The notes under the pieces were generated by a model. It was not told the DNA's origin, did no database searches, and saw only the letters and a program-made list of their open reading frames with translations. The position numbers were made by a program, and so were the translations under genes. Of a stretch of 64,000 nt of DNA, positions 16,738 to 17,339 are shown piece by piece; the first letter of the stretch is position 1; each line of letters begins with the position of its first letter. The stretch comes from Escherichia coli O127:H6 str. E2348/69 (GTDB taxonomy: Bacteria; Pseudomonadota; Gammaproteobacteria; Enterobacterales; Enterobacteriaceae). The stretch lies in the NCBI RefSeq assembly GCF_000026545.1, contig NC_011601.1; one strand, written 5' to 3'.

Positions 16738-16816
16738 ACGTCCTGATTCAGACCTCCTTTCAAATGAATGCCCAACGCTTAATTCACACCTACACCTTTC
16801 TCTACACTTACATATT

Positions 16817-16848
16817 CGTTAAACCATATGTGTTTTTGACTTGTCCGC
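16817..16848 (+). promoter_or_regulatory. Residual ars promoter/ArsR-operator-like sequence
   Basis: cgttaaaccatatgtgtttttgacttgtccgc contains a TTGACT -35-like hexamer and resembles ars operator sequences as I remember them; no arsR ORF follows. Confidence 0.4.
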
Positions 16849-16853
16849 TTTGG

Positions 16854-16901
16854 TTTGTAACGCTGGTGGCGCTGGCGCTACACCTCTCTTTCACATCGTA
16901 A
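16854..16901 (+). pseudogene. arsB: 3' stub of arsB (arsenite efflux pump), last ~15 codons only
   Basis: In-frame reading FVTLVALALHLSFTS* ending 12 nt before the arsC ATG resembles the ArsB C-terminus; no upstream arsB body exists. Confidence 0.5.
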
Positions 16902-16913
16902 TGAGATACTGAT

Positions 16914-17339
16914 ATGAGCAACATTACCATTTATCACAACCCGGCCTGCGGTACGTCGCGTAATACGCTGGAGATGATCCGCAACAGCGGTACAGAACCG
17001 ACCATTATCTATTATCTGGAAACACCACCGACGCGCGATGAGCTGGTAAAACTCATTGCCGATATGGGGATTACCGTACGCGCGTTGCTGCGTAAAAACG
17101 TCGAGCCGTATGAGAAACTGGGCCTTGCAGAAGATAAATTTACTCACGATCAGTTAATCGACTTTATGCTTCAGCACCCGATTCTGATTAATCGCCCGAT
17201 TGTGGTGACGCCACAGGGAACTCGCCTGTGCCGCCCTTCAGAAGTCGTGCTGGAAATTCTGCCAGATGCGCAAAAAGGCGCGTTCACCAAGGAAGATGGC
17301 GAGAAAGTGGTTGATGAGGCGGGTAATCGCCTGAAATAA
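16914..17339 (+). CDS. arsC: Arsenate reductase (glutaredoxin-coupled)
   Basis: 141-aa ORF MSNITIYHNPACGTSRNTLEMIR... with the catalytic Cys in HNPACGTSRN. Confidence 0.95.
   Translation: MSNITIYHNPACGTSRNTLEMIRNSGTEPTIIYYLETPPTRDELVKLIADMGITVRALLRKNVEPYEKLGLAEDKFTHDQLIDFMLQHPILINRPIVVTPQGTRLCRPSEVVLEILPDAQKGAFTKEDGEKVVDEAGNRLK

Follow-up and report, generated by a model that had tools for sequence, protein, structure and literature searches.

We found that one ancient illegitimate deletion of ~1.68 kb very probably gave rise to the phylogroup B2-type ars locus, and this account best explains the locus as a whole. The deletion allele is fixed in B2 strains of Escherichia coli, E2348/69 included. 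The deletion took arsR, the -10 of the ars promoter and codons 1-414 of arsB, so that the old operator and -35 now abut a stub of arsB, directly followed by arsC. The loss of arsRB with retention of arsC is already published at the gene level, together with its phenotype. As stated in the passages on the ars genes in two earlier papers, arsR and arsB are missing from phylogroup B2 strains, which retain arsC and are sensitive to arsenite (Sütterlin et al. 2018, PMC5923176; Amin et al. 2022, PMC9731454). The same passages give an arsenite MIC of <128 mg/l for every isolate without arsRB, with arsC in all isolates (PMC5923176), and report that arsRB are likewise absent from ST131 isolates, in which As(III) MICs are lowest (PMC9731454). 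Arsenate reduction without ArsB efflux, which the sequence-only reading found physiologically odd, has therefore already been described, with its phenotype, at the gene level. Our addition is minor and consists of a base-level junction within the promoter spacer, a hybrid promoter candidate, the differential decay of the retained parts, and the occurrence of the junction on divergent haplotypes. The junction at base level, the retained operator and -35, the 15-codon stub and the hybrid promoter are not described in those passages of PMC5923176 and PMC9731454.

The window, the whole stretch of E2348/69 DNA that we analysed, is 64 kb long (64,000 nucleotides). Around the ars site it contains the following features:

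14891-16243: gor, which together with prlC and rlmJ lies upstream of the ars site
16297-16380, minus strand: dinQ, type I toxin gene (RefSeq annotation), the left-hand context, outside the deletion
16655-16739, plus strand: AgrB-like antisense sRNA in single copy (Rfam RF02891, 91.5 bits, gathering score 40)
16914-17339, plus strand: arsC, glutaredoxin-dependent arsenate reductase of 141 aa (family models)
after arsC: yhiS pseudogene, slp, dctR and chuS

RefSeq places dinQ, arsC and the yhiS pseudogene between gorA and slp in E2348/69, with arsC as the sole ars gene. The heme-uptake locus follows, with the start of chuS at 19829, 2.5 kb past arsC. The K-12 gene order given in the sequence-only reading agrees with the RefSeq annotation of MC4100 (gor, dinQ, arsR, arsB, arsC). 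The agr sRNA ends in an intrinsic terminator, read from the sequence as a strong hairpin with a T-run at ~16707-16737, and most transcription arriving from upstream should stop there before it reaches arsC.

The neighbourhood of the ars site varies in its own right. The dinQ/agr repeats lie at 16455-16487 and 16654-16739, and the window holds one agr sRNA; two (agrA and agrB) are present in K-12 (locus L002, 4205-4720) and in O145 strains. Relative to K-12, the window is without one 231-bp repeat unit. Its remaining agr repeat has 91% identity with the repeat on the dinQ side, and antisense pairing therefore looks kept. Three B2 strains, Nissle 1917 (locus L004, 1495-1970), AGR5151 (L006) and Ecol_867 (L010), carry an extra 199-bp deletion from the dinQ-side repeat to the agr repeat that leaves a single hybrid repeat copy. 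Judged by the K-12 layout, this deletion takes out the interval with the divergent dinQ and agr promoters, so that DinQ and AgrB may no longer work as a type I toxin-antitoxin pair in these lineages. On the other side, two REP-like palindromic elements stand directly downstream of arsC (17380-17480), one of them with a weak, sub-threshold Rfam match to naRNA4 (27.3 bits, gathering score 59.5). The yhiS homologue (17956-18333) is a frameshifted, shortened pseudogene in E2348/69 (RefSeq); yhiS is also a pseudogene in every carrier of the deletion annotated across the region, and the K-12 copy is split by IS5.

The sequence-only reading had made two proposals: that a deletion has taken arsR and most of arsB, and that an operator-like sequence with its -35 now runs into a 3' stub of arsB, with an intact arsC immediately behind it. 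BLAST and base-level alignments to K-12 bore out both proposals, and placed the following features between the agr sRNA and arsC:

16740-16850, plus strand: remnant of the region upstream of arsR (alignment to K-12 and CFSAN061770)
16851-16852, no strand assigned: junction, TG, whose side of origin is uncertain (the left side in K-12 is CG)
16853-16901, plus strand: arsB 3' stub (BLAST and alignment), with codons at 16854-16898 and the stop TAA at 16899-16901
16764-16901, plus strand: chimeric open reading frame of 45 codons, running from the promoter remnant through the junction into the arsB frame

Breakpoints were mapped against K-12 MC4100 and the arsRDABC strain CFSAN061770. Relative to K-12, ~1.68 kb is gone between 16850 and 16853 (roughly 4835-6518 of the K-12 locus L002), and the lost segment comprises the -10 region of the ars promoter, the whole of arsR and arsB codons 1-414. 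BLAST against MC4100 returned a left block (16250-16850) that corresponds to the gor-dinQ-agr-Pars region and stops in the promoter spacer, and a right block (16853-17400) that corresponds to the last 49 nt of arsB and to arsC. At base level, the left block stops 9-11 nt past TTGACT, and the native -10, GACACT, is deleted. The right block begins GTTTGT, in the arsB frame, and is 93.6% identical to K-12 over 549 nt. The stretch 16740-16913 is thus homologous to the ars promoter and the arsB 3' end rather than being unrelated intergenic DNA, the outcome that had been put forward as the alternative. Within the remnant, a sequence homologous to the ArsR operator lies at ~16817-16841. The remnant (16740-16850) diverges from K-12 by 12.5%, against 3.6% between two arsR-intact lineages.

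The frame that ends just before arsC had been taken for the ArsB C-terminus, and this identification is correct. It consists of the last 15 codons of arsB and the stop, FVTLVALALHLSFTS, with 414 of the 429 codons gone, and 12 of its 15 positions equal K-12 ArsB 415-429 (FVTLAALALRLSFTL). A tblastn search of the whole 64-kb window with K-12 ArsR and ArsB found the stub as the sole true match; for ArsR there were only chance matches in the window (E >= 0.03). The 45-codon chimeric frame was rejected as a gene and probably exists by chance: it lacks a Shine-Dalgarno sequence, a family match and a RefSeq annotation, and its start sits upstream of the candidate promoter described below. No microhomology longer than 1-3 nt (GCT or TG) was found at the breakpoints. 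Simple slippage was likewise rejected, as no parse of the endpoints yields the junction when it is compared with synthetic deletions of K-12 and D-type sequences.

To survey how widely the fused arrangement occurs, we compared 16250-17400 by megablast with 5,426 complete E. coli genomes, counting as carriers those in which it spans at least 80% of the query; E2348/69 matched at 100% identity. There were 1,106 carriers, about a fifth of the genomes, and ~1,068 genomes have B2-type haplotypes at >=95% identity to the window. The arsR-arsB interior was present in 4,320 of the 5,426 genomes. The two counts sum to the total, so that few carriers can hold a K-12-like arsRB elsewhere; four genomes are without the whole region, so the equal sum is no proof that the two sets are complementary, and the number of such carriers is a handful at most. 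We compared 14 carriers, the window and 13 others with B2-type, O145-type and near-K-12-type flanks; they include Nissle 1917, an APEC O2:K1:H7 strain, F11, ST131-like strains, O145 STEC, HH97, 33F4 and PE164. All 14 share the junction CCGCTT-TG-GTTTGT, including the non-K-12 base T16851, and in all 14 the arsC gene of 141 codons is intact.

The position of the breakpoint raises the question of what drives arsC. Two elements are relevant:

16836-16841, plus strand: retained -35, TTGACT (positional homology to the K-12 TTGACT)
16856-16864, plus strand: candidate new -10, with TG at 16856-16857, one base, and AACGCT at 16859-16864 (sigma-70 matrix)

The K-12 ars promoter reads TTGACT, 17 nt, GACACT, hexamers that we take to be its -35 and -10. 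The TTGACT of the window is the homologue of the K-12 -35, as the first reading had supposed. A breakpoint within the spacer makes a hybrid promoter candidate, TTGACT-17 nt-(TGn)AACGCT, plausible: AACGCT is built from former arsB codons, stands 17 nt after the retained -35, and still has A and T as its second and sixth bases. The earlier statement that no good -10 exists at the expected spacing therefore stands only in part. A consensus promoter scan of 16200-17600 did find none between the AgrB terminator and arsC, but AACGCT with its TGn occupies the 17-nt spacing. Moreover, the same scan, used as a control, also misses the native K-12 promoter, whose -10, GACACT, is non-consensus. Because the scan fails on a functional promoter, its negative result upstream of arsC carries little weight. 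With a crude sigma-70 weight matrix, built from our own approximate frequencies and an arbitrary TGn bonus on which the hybrid score depends, the hybrid site scored 9.99, the best in 16740-16925, and the native K-12 promoter 10.66. Shuffled sequence gave a median of 8.07 and a 90th percentile of 10.89, so that the hybrid and the native site both fall in its upper range and the hybrid score is not exceptional.

The ArsR binding site covers the wild-type -35 (PMC9134189), and the footprint, of up to 33 bp, is reported to overlap it, its sequence being absent from the text (PMC6555750, PMC9134189). A motif search for a published base-level K-12 ArsR operator gave no match. The retained operator would be inert without ArsR. 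In the account that we prefer, arsC would be transcribed from the old -35 TTGACT and the new TGn-AACGCT taken from arsB codons, and such a hybrid promoter would, in the absence of ArsR, be constitutive. That arsC is still transcribed in this way, at a low and arsenic-independent level, is in our view a nearly balanced question, inclining slightly towards doubt. The promoter remnant changes as fast as neutral sequence or faster, with no sign of constraint as a promoter. A literature search for arsC transcription in carrier strains gave no such data; two CFT073 studies give only yffB, an ArsC-family paralogue.

A terminator-like hairpin lies at 16866-16881, past the candidate promoter and ahead of arsC; its occurrence does not exceed what chance allows (2 found, 1.2 expected). 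A GCT to GTG change in the stub strengthens this small GC hairpin and T-rich run. The change is common to B2-type and O145-type carriers and is not found in HH97, 33F4 and PE164.

The arsC gene itself had been read as full length, and its 141 aa at 16914-17339 agree with this. ArsC matches NCBIfam NF007456 with 302.5 bits (cutoff 242) over residues 1-141 and TIGR00014 with 135.4 bits (cutoff 106), and the native 12-nt arsB-arsC spacer with the ribosome-binding region (16902-16913) is retained. The window ArsC and every sampled allele have Cys12, Arg60, Arg94 and Arg107, the catalytic cysteine and the arginine triad of R773 ArsC. The dN/dS of arsC relative to K-12 is 0.14. Changes specific to the B2 branch were counted with K-12 and CFSAN061770 as outgroups. 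They affect 11 of 112 sites in the promoter remnant (9.8%) and 6 of 49 in the arsB stub (12.2%); in arsC, the figures are 6 of 284 for codon positions 1+2 (2.1%) and 6 of 142 for position 3 (4.2%). Remnant and stub together (17/161) differ from arsC positions 1+2 (6/284) at Fisher p = 0.0002. Thus, decay of the remnant and the stub was roughly as fast as in neutral sequence, or faster, and arsC was constrained on the same branch. Ongoing selection on arsC is likely from these comparisons, and ArsC would accordingly stay under purifying selection in the deletion account.

The most serious rival holds that arsC is a silent relic, its sole working promoter gone, and survives only because the time since then is too short for a gene of 426 bp to have been disrupted. 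The loss of the native -10 and the absence of a promoter from the consensus scan in 16740-16913 favour this reading, as do the unconstrained promoter remnant and the L113P substitution carried by the F11 arsC allele. Polymorphism within B2-type arsC alleles (4 synonymous and 4 non-synonymous changes; p = 0.10 against neutrality, an underpowered comparison) is compatible with neutrality. However, the consensus scan is blind to the functional K-12 promoter too, the catalytic residues of ArsC are kept, and arsC is intact not only in the sampled carriers (14/14) but also in all isolates of PMC5923176, as stated in its passage on gene content. In addition, changes per site on the same branch are ~5 times as frequent in the remnant and stub as at arsC positions 1+2. 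We therefore regard the silent relic as possible but doubtful.

Less probable still, and in our judgement unlikely, is a selected allele. In this scenario, the deletion spread by recombination and arsC is functional and constitutive from the hybrid promoter, serving either pump-independent arsenate detoxification (through GlpF) or a reductase role unrelated to arsenic. In the deletion account too, As(III) produced by ArsC would have to exit other than by ArsB, for example, and speculatively, down its gradient through GlpF.

The single ancient deletion that we favour has to account for one junction found on divergent flanking haplotypes, O145:H28 STEC among them. The O145:H28-type haplotype has a K-12-like arsC and left flank (36 genomes at >=99% identity), and the flanks and ArsC of HH97 are nearly identical to those of K-12. 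Rightward of the junction, the B2-like markers are nested: HH97 has none, 33F4 and PE164 have only A16859, the O145 type has A16859 and TG16866-16867, and B2 has all. Because the markers are nested, T16851 is common to the carriers and the endpoints have no repeats, we conclude that one deletion was followed by homologous recombination. This implies that the deletion allele would have had a single origin and would later have been moved, or re-flanked up to the heterology, by homologous recombination. In phylogroup E, the gene order of an isolate is that of B1 or that of B2, according to the passage on gene order in PMC5923176.

Alternatively, a site-preferring mechanism could have produced recurrent independent deletions in B2, O145:H28 and other backgrounds. 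The O145-type and HH97-type flanks and arsC are K-12-like to within a few bases of the junction, and a single origin therefore needs recombination endpoints very close to it. However, both endpoints and T16851 are common to 14/14 carriers, no direct repeat of >3 nt exists at the endpoints in K-12 and D-type sequences, and nested B2-like markers are the pattern of an eroding introgressed tract. Recurrence is therefore very unlikely.

Several carriers differ further in the surrounding region. In the Shiga-toxin lineage O145:H28 (RM9154-C1, locus L003, 2240-2830), the junction of the arsRB deletion is fixed; it also occurs in scattered other strains, with flanks and arsC again like those of K-12. 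HH97 and PE164 have chu-locus genes downstream. In HH97 (locus L017, 7486-10591), the heme-uptake locus is shortened; chuS, chuA and chuTWXY are absent, and the order is dctR, a small NAD(P)H-binding gene, shuU/chuU, an ATPase gene and yhiD. PE164 (locus L018, 3592-4674) has an IS481-family transposase between dinQ and arsC, in the usual agr sRNA region.

The remaining alternatives hardly survive. B2 is an early-branching E. coli lineage, which would suit an ancestral lone arsC with arsR-arsB inserted in other lineages. An in-frame arsB 3' fragment with its stop, and a promoter and operator that reach into the spacer, are explained by deletion alone, and congruent arsRBC and rMLST phylogenies gave the same conclusion of deletion in the phylogenetic part of PMC5923176; the insertion scenario is therefore barely tenable. 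An assembly or sequencing artefact, with arsR-arsB really at the site, is next to impossible, since the fused arrangement recurs in 1,106 independent complete genomes with an equal junction in the 14 sampled, and independent short-read studies report, in their passages on ars gene content, B2 strains without arsR and arsB and a matching arsenite-sensitive phenotype (PMC5923176, PMC9731454).

Taken together, the deletion accounts for the published arsenite sensitivity of B2 strains, including major extraintestinal pathogens, ST131, Nissle 1917 and EPEC E2348/69. An arsC-positive call in gene-content screens of B2 strains is consequently no sign of arsenic resistance. How a half-cut promoter could serve arsC is a small, testable question, and the invariant junction is a clean marker for tracing the recombination of alleles between E. 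coli lineages. The current understanding of ars systems is unchanged by this locus.

Compared with known systems, the window is an exact instance of the published B2 ars locus, with only arsC between gor and slp and the chu/hem genes a few kb downstream, and shows no gene-level difference from it. K-12 arsRBC occupies the same site (gor-dinQ-agr-ars-yhiS-slp), and its upstream region with the -35, the arsB 3' end, the spacer and arsC are homologous to those of the window. In contrast to K-12, the window lacks the -10, arsR and 414 of 429 arsB codons, and has one agr sRNA instead of two; its locus is thus predicted to be without ArsR repression, As(III) induction and ArsB efflux. The arsRDABC locus of ST69-type or phylogroup D strains, such as CFSAN061770 (locus L007), lies at the same site and is the nearest intact relative of the window flanks and arsC (~95% identity). 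It has arsR, arsD, arsA and a full arsB, and represents the opposite extreme of ars content. Beyond its arsC, CFSAN061770 (L007, 1-499) also carries a second ArsR/SmtB-family regulator and a permease gene, for which neither the window nor K-12 has a counterpart. The arsR-aqpS-arsC-arsH operon of Sinorhizobium meliloti likewise pairs its arsenate reductase with neither ArsB nor Acr3 (Yang et al. 2005, in PMC6205960). In that system, ArsC and AqpS provide channel-mediated exit of As(III), and efflux through GlpF is considered possible in E. coli (review PMC6205960). In both cases, internal As(III) would need to leave through a channel down its gradient, and sensitivity to external arsenite is shared. 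However, the S. meliloti operon contains the aquaglyceroporin gene and is regulated by ArsR, whereas the locus in the window has no linked channel gene.
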